This document shows, piece by piece, positions 40,586-61,320 of a DNA stretch of 64,000 bases. The notes under the pieces are model-generated. The model saw nothing but the letters and a program-made list of their open reading frames with translations, searched no databases and was not told where the DNA came from. A program made the position numbers and the translations under genes. The stretch's first letter is position 1; each line of letters opens with the position of its first letter. Location: IMG/VR virus record IMGVR_UViG_3300012954_000006. One strand, given 5' to 3'. This stretch comes from an uncultured virus (IMG/VR IMGVR_UViG_3300012954_000006). Its lineage: Duplodnaviria > Heunggongvirae > Uroviricota > Caudoviricetes.

Positions 40586-40603
40586 TACAATAAAATACAC
40601 AAA

Positions 40604-41224: not shown

Positions 41225-41228
41225 TGAC

Positions 41229-41282
41229 TTTGCGTAGCATCACTTTCAACTATATTTATGGTTACTACTGATGCTACGCAAA
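41229..41282. repeat. ~55-bp palindromic element, copy 2 (inverted)
   Basis: TTTGCGTAGCATCA..TGATGCTACGCAAA. Confidence 0.8.
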
Positions 41283-41380
41283 AAAGCAGTTTCCGAAACC
41301 TCATAAGTGGAAGGAAAAGAGGGCGTAGTGGTTCGTCCAACAAACAAAAGCTTGTGAATCTACTTAGCAAACCATCGTTT
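41283..41380 (+). ncRNA. Candidate structured RNA motif, copy A
   Basis: AAAGCAGTTTCCGAAA..AGAGGGCGTAGTGGTTCGTCCAACAA..TTGT; recurs at 42372, 60381, 61226. Confidence 0.55.
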
Positions 41381-41416
41381 CTTCGCCGACTGAAAATCCT
41401 AAAAGCAAACTTAAAT

Positions 41417-41728
41417 ATGACAAAAACAAACATCGTAAGCAGAGCCACATTAGATATTTTTGAAGACAACAAACAATTTGTGCAAGAGGCTAATAAAATA
41501 CTCCTACAAATAGAAAAGACAAAGGCTTTGAAAAATGATTTCAAGGTAATGCTTTCTAATCATATTGCGTTTTTGGGTAAAGATAAGAACCACGAATCCG
41601 TAAAGCAAATTAATACTTTAATTGGCATCTGTGACGTTACATTAACAGCAGCACAATATGTACTGCGACAGGAATTTGTAGATTTGACCGTTAATAAAAT
41701 AGTTCCTGATAATTATGCAAATGATTAA
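41417..41728 (+). CDS. Hypothetical protein (start corrected to MTKTNI)
   Basis: Upstream ORF extension overlaps repeats. Confidence 0.6.
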   Translation: MTKTNIVSRATLDIFEDNKQFVQEANKILLQIEKTKALKNDFKVMLSNHIAFLGKDKNHESVKQINTLIGICDVTLTAAQYVLRQEFVDLTVNKIVPDNYAND

Positions 41729-42395
41729 GTATTACGACAAACACAACAAGCTATTAAAGCGAGGGTATATAGTTAGGCTGTCGATAGGCAATGATAATCT
41801 TATTGGTATAGTATCTTGCTATAAAAAGCAATGGTACATATACTGCTTGTATCACACCTACAACGGAGTTCAATATGATAAAGAGTGTATTGTTTTGGGT
41901 AACTTGCCTTACGTTGTTGTTGATGGGAAACGCACACTAAGAGATGTCACAATAGAAAAAGATAAGCCCTGTATTACCGAATGTATTTACAATTACAGTT
42001 TTATATACTCTGGCAAAACAAGGTTTAAAGACAAAAAAGAGCGTGACTTTTGGGTAGGATACATGTGTCATTGGAATGGTTGTATTTACAACAATACATA
42101 TTGCCATCTGTTTCTGTATAAACAAAATAGCCAACATAAAGACACATTTTGTAATTATGGCTGCGACTTTATTCCTTTAATCATTAGGGAAGTTTATAAT
42201 GACAGATGCTACTATATATTATCATTGTTCACACCTGACGATGAAACCATTAGCGATATGTATTTTCATAAGCAACATTTACTGGAAGTGAAAAGTATTA
42301 TAAGTAAGTATTACAAAAATAATGAATGGTTACAAATGTTGTATCGAAAAGATTATATCTCACATCTACACAAAGCAGTTTCCGAAACTTCATAA
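41715..42395 (+). CDS. Hypothetical protein (YopX-like N-terminus)
   Basis: YDKHNKLLKRGYIV resembles DKNGKEIYEGDIV. Confidence 0.55.
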   Translation: MQMIKYYDKHNKLLKRGYIVRLSIGNDNLIGIVSCYKKQWYIYCLYHTYNGVQYDKECIVLGNLPYVVVDGKRTLRDVTIEKDKPCITECIYNYSFIYSGKTRFKDKKERDFWVGYMCHWNGCIYNNTYCHLFLYKQNSQHKDTFCNYGCDFIPLIIREVYNDRCYYILSLFTPDDETISDMYFHKQHLLEVKSIISKYYKNNEWLQMLYRKDYISHLHKAVSETS

Positions 42396-42469
42396 GTGGA
42401 GGAAATAGAGAATGTAGTGATTCATCCATCAAGGTGTACACCTTGTAAATAATAAGCATCACAACTGCA
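42372..42469 (+). ncRNA. Candidate structured RNA motif, copy B
   Basis: Same motif; stem CAAGGT-GTAC-ACCTTG replaces ACAAGT-GAAA-GCTTGT. Confidence 0.55.
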
Positions 42470-42499
42470 AACGTTATTTTTGAAAGAACATAATACAGT

Positions 42500-43411
42500 A
42501 TGAAATTACTAGATTTAATAAAAGCAACTAAACCTAACTTTGTTATATCAAAACCAATAAAAAAAATATGCAAAAAGTTAGATGATTTTGTAAGTGGCAA
42601 AATAAAAAACCTAATCATAGCAATCCCCCCTAGAACATGTAAAACAGAGCTAGGTGTGCGTAGTTTTATCCCATTGTTGTTGGCAGCAAAAAACAATGGC
42701 AACATAGCCATTGCTGCTCAAACGACATATCGAGCAGAACAACTAGCATTGGATGTAAGAAGAATTATTAACAGTAGTGAATACGAGTCGTTTCTACAAC
42801 AACATGGATATAATAACAGTCATTTAAGTCACATTAAAGATAGTTATTGAGAGAATACAAGGCAAAAAAGGTTATACACTACGACGGTTGCAAGCAGTAT
42901 AGTGGGTAAGAATATTAAATATTTGGTAATGGATGACATCAGTTCTAATGAGCTACTTTATGAGAATAACAATAAAACATTCGAGCAATATATTTATTCA
43001 TTACGAACTAGATTGAATAATAATAGTCAGCAACTTGTAATTACTAGCAGGAGTGCAAGGTTCGATTTTGTAGGAATGTTGCTACATTTAGATTTAGATG
43101 ATTGGACGTATTTAGCTATTCCTGCTGTAAAACAACGCAAGAAATCTCAAGCTAAGTCTTTATGGAAATATAAGAACCTATATGATTTGAAATACTTCTA
43201 TAACAATGCCACCCATTCAGGTGTAAGCATATTTAGTTCTTTTTACCAACAAGACCCCAAAGAGACTGATATTGATAAACTCATTGAAGTTGTGTTGTAT
43301 CATAAATACAGAGATAAATATACTAGACCACGTCAAAAAGCACGTATCATTAATACATTAGAAGGCGTTATTAAGAAAATGGAATCCCCAAAAAGACAGC
43401 CAACTATTTAA
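42500..43411 (+). pseudogene. Degenerate terminase large subunit ATPase domain, in-frame TGA 42848-42850, no nuclease domain
   Basis: NLIIAIPPRTCKTEL (cf. MPPRHGKSEL), LVMDD, ITSR..FDFVGMLL (cf. TRWHEDDLxG), LAIPA, FSSFYQQDP; both ORFs in the same frame. Confidence 0.8.
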
Positions 43412-43712
43412 TGCAATGAACAGTAAAGTAAATGTAATTGAACTACCAAAAGCTAAACAGGTGGAATTTGCTAAATACATTGAGCTTAATGTTTCTTAGT
43501 TATAGACAATAACTTAAAAACAAAGACAGATTCAAAACCCAAGTAATTCTTAAATGGAACATGGTGGCGGTTGATTGCACTAACTGATAGCAAGGTAGGA
43601 AGTGCCGTTCTTGTTCGTCAAAATTTCAAAGGCCGAAAGGATATGAGCGTTAGAAGCCAACGATAAAACTCTTTAAGTGAGGAACAATCAAATCTGTTAA
43701 AAAAACAAAAAT

Positions 43713-43958
43713 ATGAAACGATACTTAATCTTCAAAGGAACCTATTATTACCCTATTGGTGGAATGGAAGATTTTTTCAAAGATGTAGGTAGTATTGAAT
43801 CTTACAAAGAAGCAATAGATAATTTCGTATTACAGGAGTACGAAAAAGAAAAAGACATTTTTAGTAAACAGGAGTTTTTAAAATACTTTTATGAAGAATT
43901 TTGGTTTCAAGTTTACGATACCGTTAAGCAGGAAATAGTATATAAAACATATAGGTAA
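43713..43958 (+). CDS. Conserved small phage protein
   Basis: KRYLIF...YYPxGGMxDF motif. Confidence 0.7.
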   Translation: MKRYLIFKGTYYYPIGGMEDFFKDVGSIESYKEAIDNFVLQEYEKEKDIFSKQEFLKYFYEEFWFQVYDTVKQEIVYKTYR

Positions 43959-43968
43959 AACAATAATA

Positions 43969-44205
43969 ATGACTAAAGAAGAGATAAAGACACTAAGTAA
44001 AGGTAGCTTAATTTTCTTTGCTGGCTATACATATAAGTTTGCCGAAGTTAAAGAGTTTCCTCATGGAGTAATGATAGGCATATATGATGAACACGACACT
44101 AGCCACATTGATTATCTTAACCCAGAAAATTGTGAAATTGTAAACCTATGCCATAATTGTCAAAATGGTTGCCCAACTTGCAACGGTTATGGTTGGTATT
44201 GCTAG
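43969..44205 (+). CDS. Small protein with C-terminal CxxC/CxxCxGxG zinc motif
   Basis: CHNCQNGCPTCNGYG. Confidence 0.65.
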   Translation: MTKEEIKTLSKGSLIFFAGYTYKFAEVKEFPHGVMIGIYDEHDTSHIDYLNPENCEIVNLCHNCQNGCPTCNGYGWYC

Positions 44206-44240
44206 GTAAAATATTACCTCAATGCAATAGCGATAAATAA

Positions 44241-44283
44241 TAAAGTGTAAGGCTGTGGTTTAAAAATACAGCCTTACACTTTA
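44241..44283. terminator. Bidirectional terminator between convergent operons
   Basis: TAAAGTGTAAGGCTGT..ACAGCCTTACACTTTA 16-bp stem. Confidence 0.8.
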
Positions 44284-44343
44284 CGAATCTTTAGCGATAC
44301 CAAACTACTATAATGAAACAGCTAACTTTCATATTGTAATTAA

Positions 44344-44787
44344 TTAAAAATATAACCCATACCCTATACATGCACTAATTGCTACATGGTCATTGATAGA
44401 AGGAATATTAGCTTTACTCCATATCAAGTCTGGCAAAGACAGTTTAATAAAATCCATAATCAAGTCAGCAAAATCGCTTCCGTAAAACTTCCCACCTTCC
44501 ATATAATTATCTACATCAATACCATTGTCAATCAGCTTTTGCTTTGCACTATCCGAAATATAGCAATCTCCATACTCTGTGCAAATGTGCAAGGCAGAAC
44601 CATACCTAGGTAACTTCCCTCCTGTAAAGTCTCTACTGTGATTGAATTGTACGCCTACTAACTTACAACTAGCTTTATAAGCTGCTCTAATTTCCTCAAT
44701 AGGCTTATTGACATCGCAAATAAAATCCTCTGTTATGCCATGTCCATCTTGAGAACAGTCTCCTAGTGTTAATTTAACTAATGCCAT
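44344..44787 (-). CDS. Conserved phage hypothetical protein
   Basis: LGDxSxDGH..AYKASC..IGYGLY motifs. Confidence 0.7.
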   Translation of the reverse strand: MALVKLTLGDCSQDGHGITEDFICDVNKPIEEIRAAYKASCKLVGVQFNHSRDFTGGKLPRYGSALHICTEYGDCYISDSAKQKLIDNGIDVDNYMEGGKFYGSDFADLIMDFIKLSLPDLIWSKANIPSINDHVAISACIGYGLYF

Positions 44788-44826
44788 TTTTTGTTTTTTA
44801 AATTTCTATAAAGATAATGTTTTTTA

Positions 44827-45477
44827 TTAAGTCAATATCTTTCTATCTTTTATCAAATAATCCACTTTATCAAAAGCAGATTTCCAAAAGTCAATATCTG
44901 TGGTCTTAATGGTACAATCTATTTTTTGATTTTTCACTCCTCTAAGCAAATCAATAAAACAAATTAATTGAACAACATTTTTTTTGTCTGCATTAACATC
45001 ATAATACTTTATTGTTTTCGTTGGTTCGCTTTCCAATATATTAATCAACACATCCTCTATTGTGTCAAGTCCGTTCATATTATTTACCTGAACAAGCGAT
45101 ATAGTAATATTACTGTCTTTTGGCTCGGTGCGAAAAAATGCTATTTCCTCGCCATCCTCATCTGTTTCAAAAACAACACTCACATTTAACTTTTCAAGTT
45201 GTAATATCCATTCCACTAAAATTTTGATGCTATCCATATTAGGCTGTTCCTCGTCAAGCCTTAGTACGCAAAAGTGATTACGATAAGGAGCTAGTTGTGG
45301 TTTTATTTGATGGAGTGCATCAATAAAATATTTATCTGGATTACCATAACACTCTACATATCTATCTTTGTAAGTCAAGCCTACACATGGGTATTTAGCA
45401 ATACCATAAGTACCATTAAATTCAGCCGTTAAGCCATGTTTATTAGCAAATGCTATAATTATACTCCTGTAATTCAT
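44827..45477 (-). CDS. Hypothetical protein; N-half related to 24535-24978
   Basis: FANKHGL..G..PCVGL..YVE..LVEWILQL.KLNVSV vs FAERFGL..G..SCVGL..WVE..LSNWVDDL.TLNVVV. Confidence 0.65.
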   Translation of the reverse strand: MNYRSIIIAFANKHGLTAEFNGTYGIAKYPCVGLTYKDRYVECYGNPDKYFIDALHQIKPQLAPYRNHFCVLRLDEEQPNMDSIKILVEWILQLEKLNVSVVFETDEDGEEIAFFRTEPKDSNITISLVQVNNMNGLDTIEDVLINILESEPTKTIKYYDVNADKKNVVQLICFIDLLRGVKNQKIDCTIKTTDIDFWKSAFDKVDYLIKDRKILT

Positions 45478-45581
45478 AGTTAATCTAATCGTTTGTTTTT
45501 GCTAGTTTAATAAGTCAATATCTATTGTCTGCCGCTTTTCTTAGTAGCAATTCGTTTGCTTGAAATATATTATACATTGTT

Positions 45582-45944
45582 TTAGTTTTTAATTGTTAAA
45601 TAAGTCATTGTGCCAAAGAGTAGCAAGCAAATTAAAACTGCTAGTATCTGTGAAAAATAATACTCCCAAATATATCCATACTCTAAAGCTAGGGCATCTA
45701 GCCTATTGTTCATTCCTCGTTGTTGGCGTTGCTTGTCTTTTATTTTTTGCTTGTTTGCAGTTGTACTGCTTTTTAAAGTCAATAGGCTATCTATATTTAC
45801 TGCTATATTCTTAGCAACACGCTCCGTCTGCTCAATTTTTACATAATGTTCAATGGCAGCACATCGAGTTTGGTAAGTGCTGTGACAGGCATAACTACAT
45901 ATCAGCAGGATAGAGAGCCATGATAATATTGTAAGTTCTTTCAT
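45582..45944 (-). CDS. Membrane protein (two TM)
   Basis: Hydrophobic N- and C-termini. Confidence 0.6.
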   Translation of the reverse strand: MKELTILSWLSILLICSYACHSTYQTRCAAIEHYVKIEQTERVAKNIAVNIDSLLTLKSSTTANKQKIKDKQRQQRGMNNRLDALALEYGYIWEYYFSQILAVLICLLLFGTMTYLTIKN

Positions 45945-46101
45945 TTGTTTTATTTAAGTGTTTTTGTATAAATATCAAGCATCTGCATCGTGGTATATTT
46001 ATTTTTCCAATTATCATGGCGAGAAGTCCAAATATGATGTCCTGCACGAACTGCATTGGTGTCTAGCCACTCCGCAAACAATAATGCTTTTTGTAACTCA
46101 A

Positions 46102-46821
46102 TCATTGCCGTTTCTTTTTGTCCCATTTAAAAGCGTCTATCTTTATCTCACGAATTATCTCTCGCCACTCTTTCCAACAATTGTAGGCGTGTAACGCCCT
46201 CTTCCATCGCTTTGATAGATATTTTTCAGTCGCTTCTAATTTTTGCCATTCCTTTTCTGATAGTTTAGGAAAGTTGTTAAATACCCCATCGTTTAAGGCA
46301 TAATAATTCTCTTTATTTTCATGGGAAAAGTACCACCTGCCTTCTTTGACGTAGTAAATTTTAGAGTGATACTTTTCATTTCCTCTAATCAAGTATTCTC
46401 CATCAGGTAAACTCTGATACGGAGTTGGATTCGCTACCAAATCGCCAAAATCAGCTTTTAAGTCTTCATGTGAGAGTATTTCTGCAAAATTAAAAGGGGA
46501 GTATTTGATTTTATTCTTCATTGTTACTGCTTTACGCTTACACTCTTTTACTAATATAACTCCCATAAAACATTTCCAACATTGCTCAATAAAACCTTTA
46601 GCTTCTTTCAAAGAAGTGCAAATTTTATGCTCATTTGCGGTATCATTCGACATAGTAGGAAAATAACAGTTAGCTACATAAACAATCTCATCATCTATTA
46701 CTTGCCTATTTATCCATGCGATTGTAATATGATTAAACTTTGCCACTCTCGCCCATCTGCCTCTTTTGTCTGGATAATTCGTATTACTATATCTGTTGTG
46801 ATATATGATTTTGTTTTTCAT
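46102..46821 (-). CDS. Hypothetical protein (possibly two fused small genes)
   Basis: Second MKNKI start-like motif internally. Confidence 0.55.
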   Translation of the reverse strand: MKNKIIYHNRYSNTNYPDKRGRWARVAKFNHITIAWINRQVIDDEIVYVANCYFPTMSNDTANEHKICTSLKEAKGFIEQCWKCFMGVILVKECKRKAVTMKNKIKYSPFNFAEILSHEDLKADFGDLVANPTPYQSLPDGEYLIRGNEKYHSKIYYVKEGRWYFSHENKENYYALNDGVFNNFPKLSEKEWQKLEATEKYLSKRWKRALHAYNCWKEWREIIREIKIDAFKWDKKKRQ

Positions 46822-46894
46822 AACCCCTGATATGTTAGTGGTAGATAAATTAAACTGCTATTATTTATGTTATTCTATAAAATCGTTTAAAAAG

Positions 46895-47485
46895 TTATAA
46901 CTCACGACATATTATACTTGACGCACGCCCACCTAAACAGGCTAACTTAGCCTTAATTACATCAAAATCTGATAAGCCGCCATATACCATTTTTCTAGGA
47001 ATAGTAGGGTCATGTTTCGCCTCCTCTTCATAGTAGTGCAACAACTGATAGAATTGCTACATAAGTATTTCGGTATCTACACTAAAAGCATTGATAAAAC
47101 TATTCCCCAATAGCACCGACTGTATTTCGCTTAAATCCCAACCAACAGGTACGGTTTTATACTGCTCATTATTATTCTCTTCATAGAGTGCTGCTCCTTC
47201 AAAAGACTGCAAGATATAAGGGTCAGCAGTAATCACATCTACCTGTTCGATACTACCTTTCTTGTTTTGGATTGCTAACAGCATATCTTTTACTTTACGC
47301 CTGTTAGCAACTCTTAAATAGTGTTCTGGAAAATATAATACAAAATGCTTTCTATTGCAACGACTGCCATTTCGTATATAATGCAATAAATCCAACTGTG
47401 AAGCACTTGCTAGTTCTTCATTGTGTCTTACATCAATATATAAATTTGCGAAGTCACAATGCTTTATTTCTACTGTTATTTTCAT
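46895..47485 (-). CDS. Degenerate C-terminal half of PtuA/AAA_21-like ABC ATPase, with in-frame TAG 47057-47059
   Basis: VLYFPEHYLR..QVDVITADPYILQS..GWDLSEIQSVLLG mirrors IDEPExHLHP..QFIxTTHSPxILS..GWxxxEIL..MG; frame stays open 53 codons past TAG. Confidence 0.5.
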
Positions 47486-47506
47486 TTTACAAATATACTG
47501 TTATGG

Positions 47507-47860
47507 TTAAATTTCAAAACCTATGGATAATCCACTAAGTATTGTCAATAATGTTAAAACTAATATAATATTAAAGACCTTTTGGTATTGTTGGCTTGCT
47601 TCTTCTATTCTTGATATATCAGTAAAAACTTTTGGTATGGACGTTTTTATTTTTACTGCATCATCAATACATATATTATTATGCAAGACCAACACCTCAT
47701 TTGAAAGTAACGTATCTATTTTGTGAATTATGTTCACTTGATACTCCATGCCTTTTGCTTGCTTTTTCCGAGCAACATCACTTAGATAACCGCTATAGAT
47801 AAATATCACTATATTAACAGCGACTAATACAACATAAATTACTGTCATTATTTTTTTCAT
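47507..47860 (-). CDS. Membrane protein (two TM)
   Basis: Hydrophobic termini; probable start MKKIMT. Confidence 0.6.
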   Translation of the reverse strand: MKKIMTVIYVVLVAVNIVIFIYSGYLSDVARKKQAKGMEYQVNIIHKIDTLLSNEVLVLHNNICIDDAVKIKTSIPKVFTDISRIEEASQQYQKVFNIILVLTLLTILSGLSIGFEI

Positions 47861-47861
47861 T

Positions 47862-48452
47862 CTACAAACCAATTAAGTTTTTATGATATTGTCTTAGTAG
47901 TTTTTGATAGTCGATATTCTCTAAGATAAAAACAAAGGTTTCCATGATGTCAAACATCTTTTTAGGTAACTGCTCTGTTAAAAAAGGAAAAAACATTGCC
48001 AATTCCACCTTAAAGTCATGAGGCTCATCCATGCCATACCAGTCAAGCTTGCTGTACTCTTTTCGCATTGACATATCTAATCGCTTGTCTGTACGAATAG
48101 TAAATCTTAATTCTCTATACTTACTATTCATCTTTTTAAATAGCCAATAATTGTATAGTAGTTTGGTTTCCGTAGGCTTGCGATAAAAAATATCCAAGTC
48201 TATTTCATACTCATAATAGTTGTAATAGCCATACAAGTCTTCATCATCACTTAATAAATATCTATCTGCCATTTGCTCGGCAATAGGATAGGTGTATTTA
48301 TTATCTGCAAGTTCTTTGTGGACACTTCGCCACACCCCTTTTTTATCTAAAAAGGTAGTTGTGTAAATAGGCTTGTTGAAATAACCATCTCTTTTTTCGC
48401 CTGTGTATTGGTATCTAAATATCATTAATTGTATTTTAGCCTTGTACTTCAA
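47862..48452 (-). CDS. Hypothetical protein
   Basis: 196-aa ORF. Confidence 0.6.
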   Translation of the reverse strand: MKYKAKIQLMIFRYQYTGEKRDGYFNKPIYTTTFLDKKGVWRSVHKELADNKYTYPIAEQMADRYLLSDDEDLYGYYNYYEYEIDLDIFYRKPTETKLLYNYWLFKKMNSKYRELRFTIRTDKRLDMSMRKEYSKLDWYGMDEPHDFKVELAMFFPFLTEQLPKKMFDIMETFVFILENIDYQKLLRQYHKNLIGL

Positions 48453-48798
48453 TTAGTGCATTAGGGTGTTTTTTGCAAGCAGCTAAATATGCTTCCATAG
48501 TTGGCACAAACTGCTTGTATTTGCCCCACCCATTTGATGCGTTGTATTTTTTAAAATAAAATGGTCTCTCTTTTAGTTGTGTCAATCCTTTTTCAAGATG
48601 ACTGATAATATCTTTAGCATATAATTCATTTTGTTGTTGTTTTTTGCGATGCAATAATAAATGAGGCTTCCATAAAGGAATATAAAGTTCAGAATGTTCC
48701 GCCATTGGAATTAAGTTTCTTGTAATATTGGTTTCAAAAACTGTTTCCTTAAAAGGAAAATCATTTGCTGTAATTACCAATTCAATATCTAATGACAT
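48436..48798 (-). CDS. Conserved phage hypothetical protein
   Basis: MSLDI..NITxNL..MA..LW.P..N..NGWG.Y..AC..HP motif family. Confidence 0.75.
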   Translation of the reverse strand: MSLDIELVITANDFPFKETVFETNITRNLIPMAEHSELYIPLWKPHLLLHRKKQQQNELYAKDIISHLEKGLTQLKERPFYFKKYNASNGWGKYKQFVPTMEAYLAACKKHPNALIEVQG

Positions 48799-49073
48799 AG
48801 TGATTTGAATTTATCTATGAAGAAATATATTTTTTTAAAAAAAATATTACTGGACTTTGGAATTGGTGGGTTATCTAGTTGATGCCACTTTTCCATGAGT
48901 ACACAAAGTTTGTTTTGGTCAGTAGATTCAAATGTCAAGATAACAGTATATCTGCCATTGCTATCACTATAAGGCTCATGCTTAAATCTAGCTGTTGGCA
49001 TATTTTCACGCATAAAGGACTGCAATTCAATTAACCTTTCTTTGTTTTTTACAGGAAATCCGTAAGTTATCAT
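48789..49073 (-). CDS. Hypothetical protein
   Basis: 94-aa ORF. Confidence 0.55.
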   Translation of the reverse strand: MITYGFPVKNKERLIELQSFMRENMPTARFKHEPYSDSNGRYTVILTFESTDQNKLCVLMEKWHQLDNPPIPKSSNIFFKKIYFFIDKFKSLCH

Positions 49074-49125
49074 TTGGTATTATCTTTAATTAATATTTAA
49101 TTATGAAAATTTGGTGTTATTAGTG

Positions 49126-49350
49126 CTAGGATTCATATTTACCTGCTTTAATACTCGCCTGAAACCTAGATACCTCAATAACACAAAAAAAAGGAATGCA
49201 AATCTCTAATATCCAATATTTTTTATGATTAATAACTTCCCCTTTTCTGAAAATTATAGGAAATTGAAATACATATCTTGAGAATATACTCAAATAAACT
49301 TCTATGCCTTCTGGGTGGTCATAGTAAAAATGAAATAATTTAAAGTACAT
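49126..49350 (-). CDS. Hypothetical protein
   Basis: 74-aa ORF. Confidence 0.45.
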   Translation of the reverse strand: MYFKLFHFYYDHPEGIEVYLSIFSRYVFQFPIIFRKGEVINHKKYWILEICIPFFCVIEVSRFQASIKAGKYES

Positions 49351-49387
49351 AATTTGTTTCTTTATTTAACACACCAATTTATAATAT

Positions 49388-49594
49388 TTAAACAATTGGA
49401 TTTGTAAATTCTAGCTCATTGCATCCACTCATCCAATAGTATATATTTTGAATCTCATGTACATATTCTATCGAAATCCAACATCTGTTTAGGTAAGTGT
49501 AATACCTAAATTCGCCATCGGCAAAAATGGATGTCGAAAGCGGTTTATTTTTTTTTGATAAATTAATATTTTGGGAACACGTGCTAAGTTACAT
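49388..49594 (-). pseudogene. Small phage gene with TAA at codon 2
   Basis: ATG TAA then open frame ending IEYVHEIQNIYYWMSGCNELEF (cf. IKYVHQLQNLYFxLTGxEL family). Confidence 0.55.
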
Positions 49595-49597
49595 ATT

Positions 49598-53134: not shown

Positions 53135-53167
53135 TGTTTAATTAAAATTTTTATAAATTTAAGCATA

Positions 53168-53770
53168 TTATTCTATTTCTTCTAACATTTTATTAGCAAC
53201 ATACTTCAATACATAATGCCCATTGATGTAGTCGGCTAGTAGTTTATGAAACTCTCTTCTTTCTATGTCTGTCATGGATTCATTTTCAGCATACCCCATT
53301 GTAATATAATCTTGTTCCCAAATATTCTCTAGTAAACAGAAAGTCATACTTAGAACTGGCTCTGTCAATATAGACATGAAATTAGCATTATTTGTTTTAG
53401 CAAATAAGTAACATCCAAACCCAATAGCGTATCTACCTATTATTGTATGGAAATCTAAATAACTGCTCTCAAAATACTCTGTAAAACGTTCGCCTTCGTA
53501 ATACTCATAATCTAATATACTCTTATCATTTATATCTGGTAGGGTATATGCAGTTGTTGCGTCAAAACTATCACTAGAATATTCTTCTATTCGACGCTCT
53601 TCAAAGTCTAACTGCTCATCTTTCCATACAACACTATATGTGGTTTCTATTAGAGTACCATCATCCTCATAATGATTCGAAACTTTCATTATGATGTACC
53701 AATTTTTATTTTCTTTGTGTTGTATAATATTACCAATAAGGTAACTATTTTCTACTGTTTTGTTTTTCAA
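53168..53770 (-). CDS. Hypothetical acidic protein
   Basis: 200-aa ORF; decayed paralogue at 54504-54952. Confidence 0.65.
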   Translation of the reverse strand: MKNKTVENSYLIGNIIQHKENKNWYIIMKVSNHYEDDGTLIETTYSVVWKDEQLDFEERRIEEYSSDSFDATTAYTLPDINDKSILDYEYYEGERFTEYFESSYLDFHTIIGRYAIGFGCYLFAKTNNANFMSILTEPVLSMTFCLLENIWEQDYITMGYAENESMTDIERREFHKLLADYINGHYVLKYVANKMLEEIE

Positions 53771-54491
53771 TTTTAATATCTTTTAAATCATTAATATTAT
53801 AATGTAAAAAGTCAGTTACAACACTAAAGTTTAGTTCGCTATCGCAACTAACCATACCTAATTCTCTATCAAGAATAATGGTCTCGTTTGGAAATTTCAA
53901 CTCTATGTGAAAAGAAATGACATCGCCATCATACAGGTCAAAGTTAGGATGTTTAACTGCTGATGTGGTTTGTTTTGATAAGTAATCTTGATAGAACGCT
54001 TCAATATTAGGATATGCGTTTTCAAAATAGTTCGTTTTGTGAGCGTCATTAAGTGCTAACAGAAATGGCAATAAGTCTGCTATATTATCGCTTTCTATCA
54101 ATGGCTCATAAGGTAGTTCCATATAAACATCGCTATGATGAGTATTCCATACCTTACAATACACCATTTTTACTTTCTTCTTCTTTCTATAAACACGCTT
54201 TTTAAAAGGCTTACCAATAACCTCAAGTATAACGGCAGGAATAAACTTTCTATATGTATTTTTCACAATAGGGTCACAATAAAGACGTGGAATTTCAAAG
54301 CCTCGACTACGTCCTACTGGATAAGCACTTTTCCAGCACTTTACTTTTTCCTTTTTAGGTATTTCTACACAACTGCTAACGTCTATTGGGAAGACATCTA
54401 CAAATTGCTCAACACTTTTCTTACACTCCTTATGGTCATCTATTCCTAGATGAGCGTATTGATTTGATTTGGCTATAAAATATTTTTTCAT
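53745..54491 (-). CDS. Hypothetical protein
   Basis: 248-aa ORF. Confidence 0.6.
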   Translation of the reverse strand: MKKYFIAKSNQYAHLGIDDHKECKKSVEQFVDVFPIDVSSCVEIPKKEKVKCWKSAYPVGRSRGFEIPRLYCDPIVKNTYRKFIPAVILEVIGKPFKKRVYRKKKKVKMVYCKVWNTHHSDVYMELPYEPLIESDNIADLLPFLLALNDAHKTNYFENAYPNIEAFYQDYLSKQTTSAVKHPNFDLYDGDVISFHIELKFPNETIILDRELGMVSCDSELNFSVVTDFLHYNINDLKDIKIEKQNSRK

Positions 54492-54503
54492 ATCAAATTA
54501 AAA

Positions 54504-54952
54504 TTACATTTGTTCTAAAATTTTATTAGCAACGTACCTTAACACATAGACACTATTAATGTATTGGCATAGCAACTTATTGAATGAAGCGATAGCAGCG
54601 GATTTTTGTTCCCATTTTTCTAATGGCTCTGCTTCGGCAATTAATAGGGTGGAAAATGACTGTGCTATCATCTAAAGATTCGGCAAAACATTCCCTCAGT
54701 CTCATACTCATAATATTCTATTTTTTCTAGAGTTAAGTTTGGTAAATTAACTTTGTTACTTTTGTCAAAAAATATCTTTTAACTTTCTAACTTGCCTCTG
54801 GGCAAAATCTTTGCTGTCGTCTTTCATTACCGATTTATAATAAGTAACAGAACTCCTCCTTTTTTGTAACGCTTTACAACGCCAACAATCACACATTCTT
54901 TGTTTTGCCATTCTGTCAAGTCAGACGTTGTTTTTACAATACTATTTATCAT
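54504..54952 (-). pseudogene. Frameshifted paralogue of 53168-53770
   Basis: Ends FNKLLCQYINSVYVLRYVANKILEQM vs FHKLLADYINGHYVLKYVANKMLEEIE. Confidence 0.75.
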
Positions 54953-54984
54953 ATTTTATGAAATTATTTTTTTGAAATAATATT

Positions 54985-55151
54985 CAAAGATAATGATTTT
55001 TTTTGATTTTTCATATTTTTTAGCATTTTTTTTACACAAAACTATCCTTTTTGCGTATCGTCAGTAGTAGCAATATTTATAGTTGAATGCAATGATTGAC
55101 AATAATATATTTGACTGCCCTTTGCAATATCAACAGAAATTACTACCTTTG
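54985..55151. promoter_or_regulatory. Divergent promoter cassette with central palindromic element (copy 3, 55049-55102)
   Basis: Minus box 54985-54992, plus TACCTTTG 55144-55151; cassette duplicated at 60193-60367. Confidence 0.75.
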
Positions 55152-55189
55152 CAACTATTCTATAAAGGAATATCTAAAATATAAAAACA

Positions 55190-55444
55190 ATGAAAGATAC
55201 TATTAATTGCTGTGGAATTGTATGCGAGTATTTGGGCGTAAACATAAAGCCTCATACCGTAACCTTAGATAGTGAAAGTAAAAAACTGCACTTTGAAAAA
55301 TACAAATATTACGATGCACAATGCACAGGCAATATGACGTATATATGTGAGCGATGCGAAATGGCTGGTGAAGAAGATTATGCTGACGGTTGTCATGATG
55401 AATTTACTCGGTATCAAAAACACAATAGGTTTGATTGGGAATAA
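55190..55444 (+). CDS. Small Cys-rich protein
   Basis: 84-aa ORF between promoter and terminator. Confidence 0.65.
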   Translation: MKDTINCCGIVCEYLGVNIKPHTVTLDSESKKLHFEKYKYYDAQCTGNMTYICERCEMAGEEDYADGCHDEFTRYQKHNRFDWE

Positions 55445-55462
55445 AACTTACAAGCAAAGCCT

Positions 55463-55498
55463 AAAAAAAGCAACTACTAATAGGTAGTTGCTTTTTTT
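55463..55498. terminator. Bidirectional intrinsic terminator
   Basis: AAAAAAAGCAACTAC..GTAGTTGCTTTTTTT. Confidence 0.85.
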
Positions 55499-55513
55499 AT
55501 AATTACATATTCA

Positions 55514-55849
55514 TTATCTTAGCAATCCATACTCTTCAACTTTGCCTCTTGCAAAAGCAATGTCACTAGACAGACTGTTGTGTATATCTAATCTATGCCA
55601 CCCTCCTACATCATCATAGCATTCAAAAACAGTCCAATCGTCTTGCTCTGTAATAACTACTCTTGCCTTACTTAATTTGCTAGTGGGATTTTCTTTTATC
55701 CATTCCCAACTAACACATAGGTGAGTAAACATATCACATCCCTCGCCACCTATCAAATCTATTGTAATGCAGTCAAACTTTTTTATTCCTGCAAATCCTT
55801 CACGATTATATATAACAGGATAAAGCGGTGTTGTATTTTTATTATTCAT
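55514..55849 (-). CDS. Hypothetical protein
   Basis: 111-aa ORF. Confidence 0.6.
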   Translation of the reverse strand: MNNKNTTPLYPVIYNREGFAGIKKFDCITIDLIGGEGCDMFTHLCVSWEWIKENPTSKLSKARVVITEQDDWTVFECYDDVGGWHRLDIHNSLSSDIAFARGKVEEYGLLR

Positions 55850-56397
55850 TATGATTTGATTTCTTGAATAAATTTATGAGTGTCTAATGCTATTTTAGCT
55901 TTCCTTTCTCTGTAATTTTCAACATTTGTAACAAGTAAATCCGAAAGAAACTTGTCATCAATTGATACTTTCAAATCTGTGATAGTTTTGATATACTCTT
56001 TAAAGGTAGTAAGGTGAAAGACATTAAGTAATTTAAACATCTCTTTTACTTTAACATTTTTTAGCATGATTTGATGTTCTCTTTTTCTTAATACAGAGTA
56101 ATTTTCAACCATTGCCTTAATATGAGCTTGTAGAAAAATCTCGTCCTCTTTTGTACCTTGCACTCCACCATTACTCTCATTCAAATTACATTCATAATCT
56201 TTGTGCATGAATGATATAAACAACTCTTCTGGCAAAGCATTATCAAGCTCCGCTTTTGTAATTGTCTTGGTAAGAAACATCTCTAATGCCTTAGTAATCA
56301 GTTTTGTGCAAAATGGATTTTTCAAAGCGCCTTCCAAGGTAGCTGAATTAACGATGTCTAATTTTGCTTGCTCTAATAATGATTGTATTTTCGTCAT
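55849..56397 (-). CDS. Hypothetical protein
   Basis: 182-aa ORF. Confidence 0.6.
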   Translation of the reverse strand: MTKIQSLLEQAKLDIVNSATLEGALKNPFCTKLITKALEMFLTKTITKAELDNALPEELFISFMHKDYECNLNESNGGVQGTKEDEIFLQAHIKAMVENYSVLRKREHQIMLKNVKVKEMFKLLNVFHLTTFKEYIKTITDLKVSIDDKFLSDLLVTNVENYRERKAKIALDTHKFIQEIKS

Positions 56398-56659
56398 AAT
56401 TGATTTTTAAATTAAGTTTTTGAATAGTTAATATTGGAAATTACTGGTTACCTTCTACAATTTGTCGCATCACAGCCATTCCCCATTTAAAGCCATGCAT
56501 TATAAGTATTAACTTCTCATCTTTTGGCGACTCTTTGTCTCGCTCATAAAAAAGGCTACACATTTTTTTATGTCTTTATCTGTGATACGTTGTCCGCCTT
56601 TGTGTTTTTCTTGCAATCTGGACAACTCTTCTCTGATAAGTGCTGATGTCATATTGTTG

Positions 56660-56854
56660 TTAATTATCGTTTTCTGTAAATACTTTATTTCCTACTGCTA
56701 CTAATAAGCATGAATTTTCTGCTTTGGGCAATATGATTAAATTTTGCTTTTTGCGGTTCGTGCAGGCAATAACTGATAATCTACCTTTGTCATCAAGGCA
56801 AATGTAAAAATCGCCTATATCGTAACCTGTATTTGCTTGAAGTTTACTATTCAT
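56660..56854 (-). CDS. Hypothetical protein
   Basis: 64-aa ORF. Confidence 0.5.
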   Translation of the reverse strand: MNSKLQANTGYDIGDFYICLDDKGRLSVIACTNRKKQNLIILPKAENSCLLVAVGNKVFTENDN

Positions 56855-57185
56855 TATTTAGTGTATTATTAGTGTGAATGCTTTGTCCTGCTGGTGTTAA
56901 GCGTTGTTCTTTAAAGTATGCTAATGTCTCTTCTATGTCGTAAAACTCAATACCTTTGGTTCTGTCCTTTTGAAGCTTATAGCCGTGCATAGCCATCTAC
57001 CACAAAAAGATGTCTATTGTAAACTCCTGTGCGTCTCGCCAAGATATATTATCAAAAACAGGGTGTCTATCTTTGTCAGATGCTAGGTGCTGAAATATCG
57101 TTTTAAAGACTTGCTTTTGGTCGTGAAAATCACGCATCCAATCAGGTAGATGCTGTTGCTTTGCAAAATAATCTTTCTTTTCCAT
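56847..57185 (-). pseudogene. Conserved phage protein with in-frame TAG 56997-56999
   Basis: LPDWMRDFHDQK..IDIFLW*MAMHGYKLQK; recalled family motif FLWxMAxHGYxLQK spans the stop. Confidence 0.7.
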
Positions 57186-57191
57186 TTGGTT

Positions 57192-57473
57192 TTATTTTTT
57201 CATTACTATATAAGTACCTAAAAGACCACCTAGTAAAGAGGCTATTAGCACAGGTAGATATTGTAGTTCAAAGTTTTTGATTATCTCATACATAGAAACC
57301 GCACTTACGCCCAATGAGATTAAATAAGCAATATGTACCAACGCACCGCTTAGTAATGCTCCGAAAATATCTTTGTTGGCGATACAAGTAATATTCCATG
57401 TACGAAAACCAACAAAGAAAAATTGCACGATAAATATAGTAATGGAGTAGGTAACAACAGTCGTGCTTATCAT
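57192..57473 (-). CDS. Small membrane protein
   Basis: Three hydrophobic helices, GGLLGTY. Confidence 0.7.
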   Translation of the reverse strand: MISTTVVTYSITIFIVQFFFVGFRTWNITCIANKDIFGALLSGALVHIAYLISLGVSAVSMYEIIKNFELQYLPVLIASLLGGLLGTYIVMKK

Positions 57474-58225
57474 AGTAAGGCTCTGGCATTAAGTGAAAAT
57501 TCATCAAACATACCATCTGGTACTTCACTCATACGTCCATTTCTATCAAATTCAATTTCAGTATTAAGACCTAAAAAAGAATCGTAGTAAAACGCTGTGA
57601 CGATATTAAAGTCAATGCGATTATTTTTAATCGCTACTCTAATACTGTCAAAAAGGTGCGATGATTCTACAAACAACAATACTTGATGCCCCAAATCAAG
57701 TATATCACGAATGATATTAGCATAGTTACTTTGTGCCGCTTCTGGGAGAAATACCGTTGGTTTGTCTAGCAATATGCTTGATGGTTTATAATGATTGAGA
57801 TTCAAGAACTCCACCATTCTCAATAATCCTGTTAGAATGTAAGCATCCTTTAGTGTAAGTAGGTAATCATGGTTTATTTTGTGCCTTTCACAAGGCATTA
57901 CTTGCGTAAAAAAAGCCTTACCTTCCTTTACCAATAGCTGCAACTGTCTTTCAGGAAACAGATAAGCCAACCATTTATTAAATATCGTTATGCTATCTAT
58001 ATTGGTACAATCAGACAAATAGGTATGGTAATGCTTGGCAGAAAACAATAATATTCTATGTATCTGCTCAAACTCGATAACCTTGCAGTTGTATGACTTG
58101 CTTTTGAGTTCCTTCTTTAAAGAATTTTGAAAGCCTAACGATTCTGATTCCACAAACATCGTTAGTTGTGGAATGTCAGCACTCCACAAGAGTGTTTTTA
58201 ATTCTACTTCTATTTCTTTAATCAT
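57470..58225 (-). CDS. Degenerate DUF3696-type AAA/ABC ATPase lacking Walker A
   Basis: ILLDKPTVFLPEAAQS..GHQVLLFVESSHLFDSIRVAIK..DRNGRMSEVPDGMFDE mirrors IENPEAHLHPxxQS..GVQxIIETHSDHILNGIRVAVK..DxxGRIxxWPxGFFD. Confidence 0.7.
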   Translation of the reverse strand: MIKEIEVELKTLLWSADIPQLTMFVESESLGFQNSLKKELKSKSYNCKVIEFEQIHRILLFSAKHYHTYLSDCTNIDSITIFNKWLAYLFPERQLQLLVKEGKAFFTQVMPCERHKINHDYLLTLKDAYILTGLLRMVEFLNLNHYKPSSILLDKPTVFLPEAAQSNYANIIRDILDLGHQVLLFVESSHLFDSIRVAIKNNRIDFNIVTAFYYDSFLGLNTEIEFDRNGRMSEVPDGMFDEFSLNARALL

Positions 58226-58229
58226 TGTT

Positions 58230-58481
58230 TTATCTGTATTTTTCTGCGTTAGATTTGGCTCTGTATATTTCTATGGGATAGTTGTCTTCTTTTGAGGAAA
58301 AAGAATTAATGATGCACTTCTCGACAATGCAAGCATACTTACCTCCTCTATAACTACAATAGTCGTCTGCCATTTTTATAGCAGGATGTTTTTTAGTATA
58401 AATACCTATATTGTAAGAATGAGCATCTCGCTCTCCATGTCTTAGTGCTGATACAATATAATGTTCTTTTGAATTTGGCAT
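58230..58481 (-). CDS. Conserved small phage protein
   Basis: RHGERDAHSY.IG..RGGKY motif. Confidence 0.65.
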   Translation of the reverse strand: MPNSKEHYIVSALRHGERDAHSYNIGIYTKKHPAIKMADDYCSYRGGKYACIVEKCIINSFSSKEDNYPIEIYRAKSNAEKYR

Positions 58482-58486
58482 AGAAT

Positions 58487-58678
58487 TTATTTTTTACTAC
58501 ATTTTCTAGGTTTATGAATAATATTAGGATAAGAACTAATAAACGGAAGACGAAAGCCATCAACAGTAAAATTGTAGATACTGTCTTTTTGCACAATGCC
58601 ATACCAACTTGATGATTTGTAGTTTTCTCGCACCCAATCATCCATTATAGTGAACTCGCCTGCCGTTGTGTATATCAA
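58487..58678 (-). CDS. Hypothetical protein
   Basis: 63-aa ORF. Confidence 0.4.
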   Translation of the reverse strand: MIYTTAGEFTIMDDWVRENYKSSSWYGIVQKDSIYNFTVDGFRLPFISSYPNIIHKPRKCSKK

Positions 58679-58827
58679 GTAATATGACCTATATTGTGTT
58701 GCTATACACTCTTTATGAATTACCTTGACACAATGATATTTTTTTGATATTACGATGCTCTAAGCTTTTAATACCTAATATTATTAGCACTACAATAAGC
58801 AGTGTTTTTATTTCGGAATGTTTGTCT

Positions 58828-59136
58828 TTATTCTTCATTGTCTAACATCTTTTGTTCATTATAACTTATAAATCCACCTTTATCTTCTGGCAGTTCTACA
58901 AACTCAACAACACCCAACCTTTGAGCAATACGAATCAAATTGCTTTTATCCCCTAGTTTATCATAGAAATTTCTACAACAAACATCTTGCCCACATACTG
59001 TTGCTTTGTGACAAATAAAGTAAGTGCCATTTTGCAAAGATTCATCTACTATTGCTTTTACAGCTTCTGGAGAAACTAACATATCCTTTGTCAATAGACA
59101 ATTGTTGCACGATTCGTTATATACTTTCAAGCTCAT
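58828..59136 (-). CDS. Conserved Cys-rich phage protein
   Basis: CxxCL..FICHK..CCRxFY. Confidence 0.7.
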   Translation of the reverse strand: MSLKVYNESCNNCLLTKDMLVSPEAVKAIVDESLQNGTYFICHKATVCGQDVCCRNFYDKLGDKSNLIRIAQRLGVVEFVELPEDKGGFISYNEQKMLDNEE

Positions 59137-59728
59137 GTATGATATTTTTATTGATTAAATATGGAGTGATATTATCTAATTGCTGTTCTTTATTCAAATG
59201 CCATTTTATTAGTGTCTGAACTTCATCTAATACCTTATAATGCTTGGCAGGTACAAGAGTTTTGTTTTCAAATAAGACGTTGCAGAAATTAACAGCCAGT
59301 ACATCTCTGGTATAGTGATAATGCTCACAGGCATCAAATCGCTGTGACATGGTGCTATTTTCACTCTTTACTAACTTCTTCCAATCTCCAAAAGCTTTTT
59401 CGCATATTACCCAGTCTTCTATTATGCTATCAAAAATAGGCATATCCTTAAAAGAAATAACAATCATAAAATCAAGTAAATAATCATATACCTTGCCATA
59501 AGATATGGTTGTATTATTGTGCCTTTCTATCAATTTCTTTTGACGTAATAATGCAAGATACTTATGAAATACCAAGAAATCGCAAGCAGTATCGCAATAC
59601 AAACTCCAAAAATACTCTTCACTTATAGTGTCGTATATTGAAGTAGCAATAGTACCTGCTCCTCGAATGTCTCTTAGTACCAAGTTTTTATTATTAACTT
59701 CATTTTTATCACTTAAAATTATATGCAT
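59117..59728 (-). CDS. Hypothetical protein
   Basis: 203-aa ORF; N-terminus similar to next gene (ILSDKNE). Confidence 0.6.
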   Translation of the reverse strand: MHIILSDKNEVNNKNLVLRDIRGAGTIATSIYDTISEEYFWSLYCDTACDFLVFHKYLALLRQKKLIERHNNTTISYGKVYDYLLDFMIVISFKDMPIFDSIIEDWVICEKAFGDWKKLVKSENSTMSQRFDACEHYHYTRDVLAVNFCNVLFENKTLVPAKHYKVLDEVQTLIKWHLNKEQQLDNITPYLINKNIIHELESI

Positions 59729-59737
59729 TAATTAAAA

Positions 59738-60163
59738 TTATCTTTGGTTAGCCACCAATCGTTTAGTATTGATGAGCCTTTTGATATTTGGCTCAATAAT
59801 AAAATTACCTGCCATCTTGAATTTAGATAACATTTTAAACCCTAATGTCAATTTAATAGGAATGAATAAGTCAGCGAGTATGTTGCAGCAGTTTCCACGA
59901 ATGATACGTTTGCTTTTTGCTAAAACGGTATTTGAGTGCTTGACACCACAATTAGTAAGATAACTATTGATAGTGTGCTTAGTACCATCATGCAAAGTCA
60001 CAGCATATTGATTTACTTGAAAACTTACAATATCTTTTACATTTGCTACTCCTCGTAAGGCTAGGTAGTTATTGTTATTTACCTTGTAGCCTTGTAAAGA
60101 TGCTGTAATTTCAACAATATTATTAGTGTTGATATATTCGTTTTTGTCGGTAAGTATAAGCAT
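59738..60163 (-). CDS. Hypothetical protein
   Basis: 141-aa ORF after promoter 60193-60200. Confidence 0.6.
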   Translation of the reverse strand: MLILTDKNEYINTNNIVEITASLQGYKVNNNNYLALRGVANVKDIVSFQVNQYAVTLHDGTKHTINSYLTNCGVKHSNTVLAKSKRIIRGNCCNILADLFIPIKLTLGFKMLSKFKMAGNFIIEPNIKRLINTKRLVANQR

Positions 60164-60192
60164 ATCTAAGTTGTTATTTTATTGATGATATT

Positions 60193-60367
60193 CAAAGATA
60201 GTTGTTTTTTTTGATTTTTTCAAATTTTGTCGCACTTTTTTGTGTAAAAACAGCAAAAAGACTTCTTTTGCGTAGCGTCAGTAGTAACTATAATTATAGT
60301 TGAAAGCAACGATTCGCAATAATAAAAGACCTATACTTTGATATGTCAATAGAAATTACTATCTTTA
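60193..60367. promoter_or_regulatory. Divergent promoter cassette with palindromic element (copy 4, 60266-60319)
   Basis: Homologous to 54985-55151. Confidence 0.75.
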
Positions 60368-60380
60368 CAATACAACTGTA

Positions 60381-60479
60381 AAAGCAGTTTCCGAAATCTT
60401 TTAAGGTAAAGGGACTAGAGGACGTAGTGGCTTGTCCAACAAGTGAAAGCTTGTAAAGCCTTTTGGTAAATCATTGTGA
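60381..60479 (+). ncRNA. Candidate structured RNA motif, copy C
   Basis: Begins about 14 nt after promoter box; best-pairing copy. Confidence 0.6.
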
Positions 60480-60558
60480 AAAAAGAGTTTGTCACTCATT
60501 CCAGAACTTGCTTTTGGAAAAATCATATACATTCATCTATACAAACTAAATCATAAAT

Positions 60559-61095
60559 ATGCCTTCTAAAAAAGACATCGCAGAATACTGGAAAAACAAC
60601 ATGCCATACAACGAAATGGAATTAAACTTTGATTGGGCAGATGCTGAATTTTGCTGCTGGAATTGTGGAGAAGATAAAAGGCGTAAGGAGCGTGCAAATC
60701 GTTATGACTTAGCAAGATTAGAGAGATGTCATATTCAACCAAAACAGTTTAAAGGAAGTAATGACCCTAGTAATTTTGTTTTATTATGCAAGCAATGTCA
60801 CTCTCAAGCACCCAATTACAATTCTCTAAATGCAAGTAAATATTTTTGGGAATGGATAAAATCCAATAAAGTCATGTTTCCGCTTTCCAATTCTTATAAT
60901 TTTTCAAAAGGATTAGAGATGTTTGAATATGTTAGAGAAGTAGATTTTTTATATTTTATACAAGAGCATAATATTGACTTTTCTTTAATCCAGCAAAAAA
61001 TTAAAAACATCGGCACGCATGGTGCAACATTTAATCCATCAACTTACTTTGCTATGTTTTGTGATATTTACGACAATCATGTCAAGACAATATAA
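60559..61095 (+). CDS. HNH endonuclease
   Basis: CWNCG..LERCHIQP..GSNDPSNFVLLCKQCH. Confidence 0.85.
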   Translation: MPSKKDIAEYWKNNMPYNEMELNFDWADAEFCCWNCGEDKRRKERANRYDLARLERCHIQPKQFKGSNDPSNFVLLCKQCHSQAPNYNSLNASKYFWEWIKSNKVMFPLSNSYNFSKGLEMFEYVREVDFLYFIQEHNIDFSLIQQKIKNIGTHGATFNPSTYFAMFCDIYDNHVKTI

Positions 61096-61146
61096 TTCAA
61101 TCATTGCGTTTTTGAAAAGCTAATTCTTAGCAGTTGGTTTGGAATT

Positions 61147-61186
61147 AAAAAAGCTACACAGTCAATTTCAAGTGTGTAGCTTTTTT
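61147..61186 (+). terminator. Intrinsic terminator
   Basis: AAAAAAGCTACACA..TGTGTAGCTTTTTT. Confidence 0.8.
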
Positions 61187-61225
61187 TGCATTTTTTTATT
61201 GATTTGAATCTCTCTAGCACATTGC

Positions 61226-61320
61226 AAAGCGATTACTAAAACTTTCATTATTTAAATAGATGGCATAGCGGTTCGCTAACAAGTGAAAACTTATAAAGTT
61301 TTTTGGCAAATAATTACTGA
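61226..61320 (+). repeat. Degenerate copy D of candidate RNA motif
   Basis: TAGATGGCATAGCGGTTCGCTAACAAGTGAAAACTTATAAAGTTTTTTGGCAAA. Confidence 0.55.

Follow-up and report, generated by a model that had tools for sequence, protein, structure and literature searches.

What role does a non-coding sequence play that recurs, at about 100 nt, four times on the plus strand of an uncultured tailed virus? The question is raised by a 64,000-nt stretch (hereafter the window) of the 192,865-bp contig IMGVR_UViG_3300012954_000006 (IMG/VR; Caudoviricetes), in which sequence reading and alignment revealed four copies of one element, termed A to D. They had previously been described, from the letters of the window alone, as an unrecognized structured RNA with covarying stems (the original prediction). 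The reading that we favor, with a probability of roughly 0.4, is that accessory-gene cassettes carry the element as a portable module, either a 5′ leader or an intergenic piece on the sense strand, and that its copies double as homology patches for cassette shuffling. The copies, with their scores for a covariance model (R1) and the distance to the next open reading frame (ORF), are as follows.

41283-41383, plus strand: copy A, intact; 105.6 bits; 33 nt before the ATG at 41417
42372-42473, plus strand: copy B, intact; 93.2 bits; 26 nt before the ATG at 42500 of a terminase-like ORF
60381-60482, plus strand: copy C, intact; 105.1 bits; 5′ leader of an HNH endonuclease gene whose ATG (60559) begins 76 nt downstream
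61226-61322, plus strand: copy D, decayed; 84.1 bits

R1 was built from the four copies and run over the 64-kb window with filters off. Its matches were the four copies only (84.1-105.6 bits), and the next best place scored 19.2 bits (E = 0.16); recovery of the copies is by construction, and the gap to the background is nevertheless large. A repeat finder independently recovered the element as families D3 and D8. The alignment, the two repeat families, and the R1 scores (84-106 bits against a background of 19) thus agree with the original placing of four plus-strand copies at 41283, 42372, 60381, and 61226. Over the first ~105 alignment columns, pairwise identity was 60-76% among A-C and 52-66% to D. 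In each of the four copies, homology sets in sharply at AAAGC and wanes about 100 nt further on. ORF 41715-42395 ends within copy B, whose first 24 nt provide its final codons and TAA stop. The element is not coding, because indels among the copies break every reading frame, and a small-peptide reading was rejected for the same reason. Nearly all genes of the window are on the minus strand, with plus-strand ORFs covering ~7.4 kb of the 64 kb, and the four copies lie inside or beside these rare plus-strand accessory units in sense orientation. Further copies may be present in the remaining two thirds of the contig.

The element opens with a block that is identical in copies A-C.

60381-60396, 41283-41298, and 42372-42387, plus strand: invariant 16-nt 5′ block AAAGCAGTTTCCGAAA

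Copy D matches this block at 11 of the 16 positions. The 15-mer AAGCAGTTTCCGAAA occurs exactly three times in the window, in A, B, and C; when up to three mismatches were allowed, nine matches were found against 2.44 expected, a number reached in none of 100 shuffles. Because the 16-mer is identical amid 60-76% identity elsewhere in A-C, selection or very recent conversion is implied. The block contains the near-palindrome GTTTC-C-GAAAC; in A and B it is a perfect 5 + 5 inverted repeat around a 1-nt spacer, and C departs from this at one base. To judge from the three sequences, the invariance of the 16-mer implies sequence-specific recognition, which would act either at the RNA level or on the near-palindrome as DNA.

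The pattern TTTG-N17-23-TAnnTTTR was found 44 times in the window against 14.3 ± 4.0 expected (44 was reached in none of 100 shuffles), and many matches of this Bacteroidota-type promoter sit just upstream of ORFs. Two such motifs and two members of a palindrome family precede copies A and C.

60337-60367, plus strand: predicted Bacteroidota-type promoter (TTTG, 21 nt, TATCTTTA), ending 13 nt before copy C
41229-41258, plus strand: promoter-like motif (TTTG, 19 nt, TATATTTA) with a putative promoter function, within a palindrome, ending 24 nt before copy A
41227-41286, no strand assigned: long palindromic hairpin of family D2, intact, directly abutting copy A; −26.1 kcal/mol, z −5.56
60265-60324, no strand assigned: decayed D2 member, upstream of the copy C promoter

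The earlier statements that copy C follows right after a promoter and that copies A-C precede genes are borne out by the 13-nt gap and by the ORFs that begin 33, 26, and 76 nt downstream. No promoter motif was found within the element itself, and copy B lies inside the operon 39812-44205. The palindrome family (TTTTGCGTAGCG...CGCTACGCAAAA) is present at 26323-26382, 41227-41286, 55048-55107, and 60265-60324. Two copies are intact and very stable (−28.7 and −26.1 kcal/mol, z −8.0 and −5.6), with compensating differences in their arms; the two others, located between divergent promoters, are decayed in the right arm. The family is not a canonical terminator, since a T-run precedes and an A-run follows the palindrome on both strands. 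In addition, several contigs of similar depth from a DNA run match or end in the palindrome copy at 60266-60319, which suggests that more palindrome copies exist elsewhere.

Upstream of copy C, a minus-strand promoter, the decayed palindrome, and the plus-strand promoter follow one another. This region (60168-60370) and 54960-55155 constitute a duplicated divergent-promoter region of ~200 nt, which is 82% identical overall, with strong similarity up to the −7 box. The region 54960-55155 leads directly to its gene (ATG at 55190) without an element. Because this paralogous region reaches its gene without it, the element appears to be a discrete insertable module between promoter and gene. Each copy of the duplicated region serves as the promoter region of one plus-strand gene set into the minus-strand backbone. 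Considered with the enriched TTTG...TAnnTTTR motifs, the duplicated region points to a Bacteroidota host, as far as sequence signals can tell. A third module was also noticed, consisting of a 50-nt palindrome-rich repeat (D4) and a 48-nt promoter-bearing repeat (D15, ending TATATTTG); it is located at 24402-24508 and 39669-39776, just upstream of the plus-strand ORFs that start at 24535 and 39812, and D4 alone is located at 61877-61926 between two minus-strand genes.

These positions raise the possibility that the element is a DNA operator, in which a dimeric phage regulator, bound at GTTTC-C-GAAAC immediately past the promoter, would act as a roadblock or timing switch, and the remainder of the element would be hitch-hiking. 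The symmetry of the site, perfect in A and B and one base off in C, its location 19-30 nt past the promoter motifs in C and A, and the other operator-like palindromes beside promoters in the window (families D2 and D4) are in line with this idea. However, copy B has the site without a promoter motif, ~85 nt of homology beyond the palindrome is kept together with pairing potential, and no regulator gene was identified, as the Pfam search gave only HTH_20 (E = 0.18) in ORF 40604-41224. We consider an operator quite unlikely.

We then turned to the genes around the copies, which the original prediction had placed in part in a Tad1/terminase island. The copies form two pairs, A/B being 1089 nt and C/D 845 nt apart. 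A/B bracket a pair of ORFans, and C/D bracket the HNH gene and a terminator hairpin. This paired bracketing of accessory cassettes, which had been missed before, points to a role at cassette boundaries.

41417-42395, plus strand: A/B-bracketed cassette of two overlapping ORFs, neither with a family match
41417-41728, plus strand: ORF of 103 aa, ORFan
41715-42395, plus strand: Cys/His-rich ORF of 226 aa, ORFan
42500-43411, plus strand: ORF for a terminase-large-subunit-like ATPase, lacking a nuclease domain and containing an in-frame TGA at 42848-42850
60559-61095, plus strand: HNH endonuclease gene of 178 aa (PF01844, 28.6 bits; cut-off 21.4)
61147-61186, no strand assigned: hairpin flanked by an A-run and a T-run, with the shape of a bidirectional terminator; −17.5 kcal/mol, z −3.48

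The hairpin at 61147-61186 was missed by a simple terminator scan because its loop exceeds the limit of the scan. Copy D occupies the space between this terminator and the point at which the convergent minus-strand gene 61314-61790 stops, and no plus-strand gene follows it. For the 226-aa Cys-rich ORF, nothing was found in PDB by sequence, and all leads in the protein atlas were sub-threshold. The genes downstream of A, B, and C are functionally unrelated to one another.

Of the two labels given to the island, the terminase label holds only for a truncated ATPase ORF: the N-terminal ATPase part is present, the sole relative is a 485-aa terminase with 30% identity, and the in-frame TGA may indicate a pseudogene, a split gene, or local recoding. 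Genome-wide reassignment of TGA is argued against by the long minus-strand ORFs. The Tad1 label rests on ORF 40604-41224 (206 aa), whose C-terminal ~110 residues share 48-51% identity with short phage proteins; among these homologs, one (48% identical) gave a match to the Pfam Acb2/Tad1 hairpin domain, which was sub-threshold (23.5 bits; cut-off 27). By this similarity, the ORF is suggested to carry a cyclic-nucleotide sponge (anti-defense) domain with an extra N-terminal part. Nothing was found for it in PDB by sequence.

Two further observations concern mobile genes and repeats in the window. A second free-standing homing endonuclease gene, with GIY-YIG and two NUMOD1 domains, is located at 31381-32919 on the plus strand among minus-strand genes, and it has no copy of the element. 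Direct repeats at 35863-36008 and 36335-36481 (families D5 and D13), ~472 nt apart and 80-88% identical, probably reflect two paralogous small genes in tandem.

The bracketing could also have arisen at the DNA level only. According to this explanation, the copies are duplicates of a junction sequence that arose as recombination or homing brought in or exchanged cassettes, they have no RNA function, and the hairpins are incidental. Bracketing of accessory genes, including the HNH endonuclease gene, by two pairs of copies and the visible decay of copy D are what such relics would leave, whereas a 16-nt block that is perfect in three copies otherwise 60-76% identical is not. Among sequencing runs, the sequence was listed for a single DNA run from a marine metagenome, which may be its source, and for no RNA run; contigs of the DNA run contained no A-B or C-D joint, with poor cover of 41300-60000 and rare variants dropped.

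Another explanation is processive antitermination, in which the element would be an RNA of the put or nut type that acts on RNA polymerase just after the promoter. In A and C, the element does follow closely on the promoter motifs, there are several copies per genome, and the hairpins are more common to them than the sequence; in these respects it may resemble HK022 put and lambda nut. On the other hand, no plus-strand terminator-like site was found between copy A and the last ORF of the operon, the sole plus-strand terminator call in the operon (44168) lies within that last ORF, and the HNH unit ends at a strong terminator that must also stop the convergent gene. With copy B also lacking a promoter, we regard antitermination as highly improbable.

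What the RNA of the element might look like was examined by comparing the copies. Three short hairpins follow the 16-nt block, and their helices are compatible in A-C. Helix 1 pairs TTTCC with GGAAA (GGGA in C) and is accompanied by a small inner helix, which is ACTT/AAGT in B and ATCTT/AAGGT in C. Helix 2 has 5 bp and an 8-nt loop, TAGTGRYT; its strands are GGGCG/CGTCC in A and GGACG/TGTCC in C, with a TAGTGG loop. Helix 3 is CAAG...CTTG with a tetraloop and is one pair longer in B (ACAAGT-GAAA-GCTTGT in C, CAAGGT-GTAC-ACCTTG in B). The helices listed originally are thus present in the copies as described. The hairpins are 5-7 bp long and have no T-run.

The claim that pairing is kept while the sequence changes stood in part. 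In an untuned MAFFT alignment, standard pairs filled 77.5% of the pair cells, compared with 39-46% when the 3′ partners were slid by 1-3 columns. However, most of the changes between copies within helices are one-sided or wobble, and helix 1 cannot be counted as true covariation because its 5′ strand is invariant. Copy A has mismatches in two helices, and copy D has lost most pairs (2 of 5 kept in helix 1 and 2 of 4 in helix 2). RNAalifold, compared with column shuffles of the untuned alignment, gave z −1.84 for the plus strand (5.7% of the shuffles were as good) and z −0.56 for the minus strand. Several G-U pairs become C-A mismatches on the opposite strand.

Several results weigh against the favored reading. 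The stems had been called covarying, and this found no statistical support: with four sequences, 94 of 500 shuffles attained the covariation score of 0.222 (0.177 ± 0.048 in shuffles), and 235 of 500 had at least as many pairs with a double change. Even in the structure-tuned alignment, A-C show just three double-sided changes, one per helix: helix 2 has the C-G to T-A change, helix 3 a change of its inner pair, and the third affects one pair of a putative loop-tail pseudoknot. RNAalifold on the hand-tuned alignment gave z −4.7 (plus) and −2.7 (minus), a tuning that biases the −4.7 towards structure. Folds of the single copies are ordinary (z +0.45, −2.00, −0.54, and +0.69 for A-D), and variation is about as frequent in paired columns (14 of 38) as in unpaired ones (26 of 60). 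The start-codon regions show no sequestration common to the copies, and start-codon sequestration was rejected for that reason. Finally, copy B has no upstream promoter motif. From four sequences of one genome, an RNA structure of the element is no more than plausible.

Part of this evidence, the covariation that is not significant and the ordinary fold stability, would also suit DNA-level relics without an RNA function. Other features are harder to accommodate, since pairing survives indels in helix 3 of copy B and the C-G to T-A change in helix 2, and the plus strand folds better than the minus strand. We therefore rate the relic explanation as possible, though on balance unlikely.

An autonomous structured RNA, whether a self-cleaving ribozyme that processes a polycistronic transcript, a ligand-sensing riboswitch, or a small RNA, would account for the multi-hairpin architecture and the sharp conserved 5′ boundary in all copies. 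A possible closing helix in B and C and a possible loop-tail pseudoknot with one compensatory G-C to A-T change in B would fit as well, and small ribozymes typically occur in multiple copies in phage intergenic regions. The complementarity between loop and tail was, however, reached by 508-1055 of 2000 shuffled tails for A-C (25-53%), and the pseudoknot was rejected as independent evidence. Moreover, there is no conserved unpaired core beyond the 16-mer and no terminator after the element that would define a small RNA, and a metabolite riboswitch is argued against because the downstream genes are functionally unrelated.

Comparison with known families likewise gave no support to an autonomous RNA. 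Rfam 15, whose families include hammerhead, twister, twister-sister, pistol, hatchet, HDV-like, riboswitches, and HEARO, had no match at the gathering score in the whole window, and even at E up to 10 no plus-strand match was found on any copy. This accords with the earlier statement that the element cannot be assigned to a known family. Weak minus-strand overlaps were found on copy D only (antisense_SR1, 22.3 bits against 45; SAM-II, 17.3 against 44), and ARAGORN detected no tRNA or tmRNA gene in the window. Among the roles first offered, leader, small RNA, or ribozyme, a leader fits, with sense copies and with A and C 13-24 nt after promoter motifs; nothing positive was found for a ribozyme or a small RNA, nor for a riboswitch, and we consider an autonomous RNA very unlikely.

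Relatives of the element were then sought in other genomes. blastn of copy C and of 39001-47000 gave no match among 50,697 phage records. In IMG/VR, the exact 15-mer was found at at least 118 loci, none of which continues into the element among the matches listed; the best R1 scores on these loci were 20.3 bits (L001-L100) and 18.2 bits (L101-L118). Longer or degenerate patterns of the element had no match in IMG/VR, a gapped pattern in JGI metagenomes gave seven loci that were chance matches, and of two patterns used on species genomes, one gave no match and the other five chance loci (best R1 score, 15.1 bits). Across the 130 fetched loci, no R1 score exceeded 20.3 bits. No R1 match was found in 151 sampled genomes of the phylum to which a Bacteroidales metagenome-assembled genome locus (L129) belongs, its own genome included. 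The covariance-model search for further copies in viral and metagenome loci and in these 151 genomes, an approach that the original prediction had named, thus brought none to light.

The neighboring genes led no further. For the terminase-like ORF, a helicase, and the HNH protein, neither IMG/VR nor the protein collection contained close relatives, and the HNH protein and a neighbor protein are singletons. The single related locus reached via the Acb2/Tad1-like protein (L131) contained no element (best R1 score, 15.7 bits). Within these collections, the phage is an orphan, and one genome is the only known source of the element. Large phage genomes commonly contain lineage-specific intergenic repeats, and four copies in one orphan genome are a lead, not a discovery.

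Three kinds of mobile or repeated element were considered and rejected. A miniature inverted-repeat transposable element with terminal inverted repeats was discarded, as GCAGTT...AACTGC is present in B only. A template/variable repeat of a diversity-generating retroelement was discarded, as no reverse-transcriptase match was found among the ORFs scanned and the copies also differ at bases other than A. An integron attC-like site was discarded, as no integrase match was found among the ORFs scanned and the element is not one imperfect palindrome.

In its genomic behavior, by analogy, the element is most like a promoter-early stem-loop (PeSL). PeSLs of T4-type phages consist of a terminator stem-loop followed by a sigma-70 promoter; they occur on either side of ORFans and of an HNH gene, and flanking PeSLs were demonstrated to recombine, with formation of mini-circles (PMC2839356; PMC4122927). 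Both are short repeated regulatory modules of one orientation that flank ORFan or homing-endonuclease genes in plastic regions, and in both the direct repeats could mediate gain and loss of cassettes. A PeSL-like composite of palindromic hairpin and promoter (families D2 and D19) is also present here, upstream of A and C. Unlike a PeSL, however, the element has no terminator-like hairpin or T-run, and terminator prediction gave no call within the copies. For A and C, the promoter motifs are upstream of the element rather than inside it, B has none, and the invariant 16-nt block with three small hairpins bears no sequence relation to PeSLs.

The start-associated sequences (SAS and ESAS) of Cluster K mycobacteriophages offer a second comparison. 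They are non-coding repeats of one orientation upstream of some genes, with inverted-repeat extensions, and their authors were likewise unable to assign them a role (PMC3203893). SAS is conserved across a phage cluster (PMC3203893), in contrast to our element from a single genome. The present element is ~100 nt long, ends 26-76 nt before the ATG, and carries its invariant block at the far 5′ end. SAS, on the other hand, measures 13 bp and lies a few bp from the start codon. Free-standing homing endonuclease genes of T4-like phages (mobE, I-TevI) have regulatory hairpins that sequester the ribosome-binding site, and a structured leader before an HNH gene inserted against the direction of the backbone recalls them. 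The likeness ends there, as no common sequestration was found here and the element also precedes genes that are not endonucleases.

Here, we propose a model in which the element travels with accessory-gene cassettes as a portable non-coding module. It would be transcribed as the 5′ leader (A and C) or the intergenic spacer (B) of plus-strand genes, and the 16-nt block would be the recognition site of a trans-acting factor of phage or host. The three hairpins, individually weak and keeping pairing rather than sequence, may present or protect this site on the mRNA, and the element would thereby affect the regulation of the downstream genes. Because each cassette carries its own copy, neighboring cassettes are bracketed by direct repeats (A/B and C/D), and these may serve, by analogy with PeSLs, as homology patches through which cassettes are gained, lost, or exchanged via homologous recombination. 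Copy D would then be the decaying leader of a cassette whose gene is gone.

A more far-reaching interpretation is that the element represents a new class of phage cis-acting structured RNA. A phage factor would read a single-stranded 16-nt block together with a scaffold of three hairpins, perhaps pseudoknotted, and would set the timing or level at which mobile accessory genes are expressed; alternatively, a small self-processing RNA would trim polycistronic transcripts at AAAGCAG. We think this unlikely. If it were true, the regulated genes would include a homing endonuclease and a cyclic-nucleotide-sponge/terminase-like island.

If instead the portable leader module is the correct reading, cassette shuffling via repeated regulatory modules, already known in T4-type coliphages and cyanophages, would also operate in an unrelated marine phage with Bacteroidota-type promoters, the module here being a transcribed leader and not a terminator-promoter unit. 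It would then provide a handle on how accessory genes, such as the homing endonuclease and those in the Acb2/Tad1-like neighborhood, are moved and expressed in hosts that do not use Shine-Dalgarno sequences.

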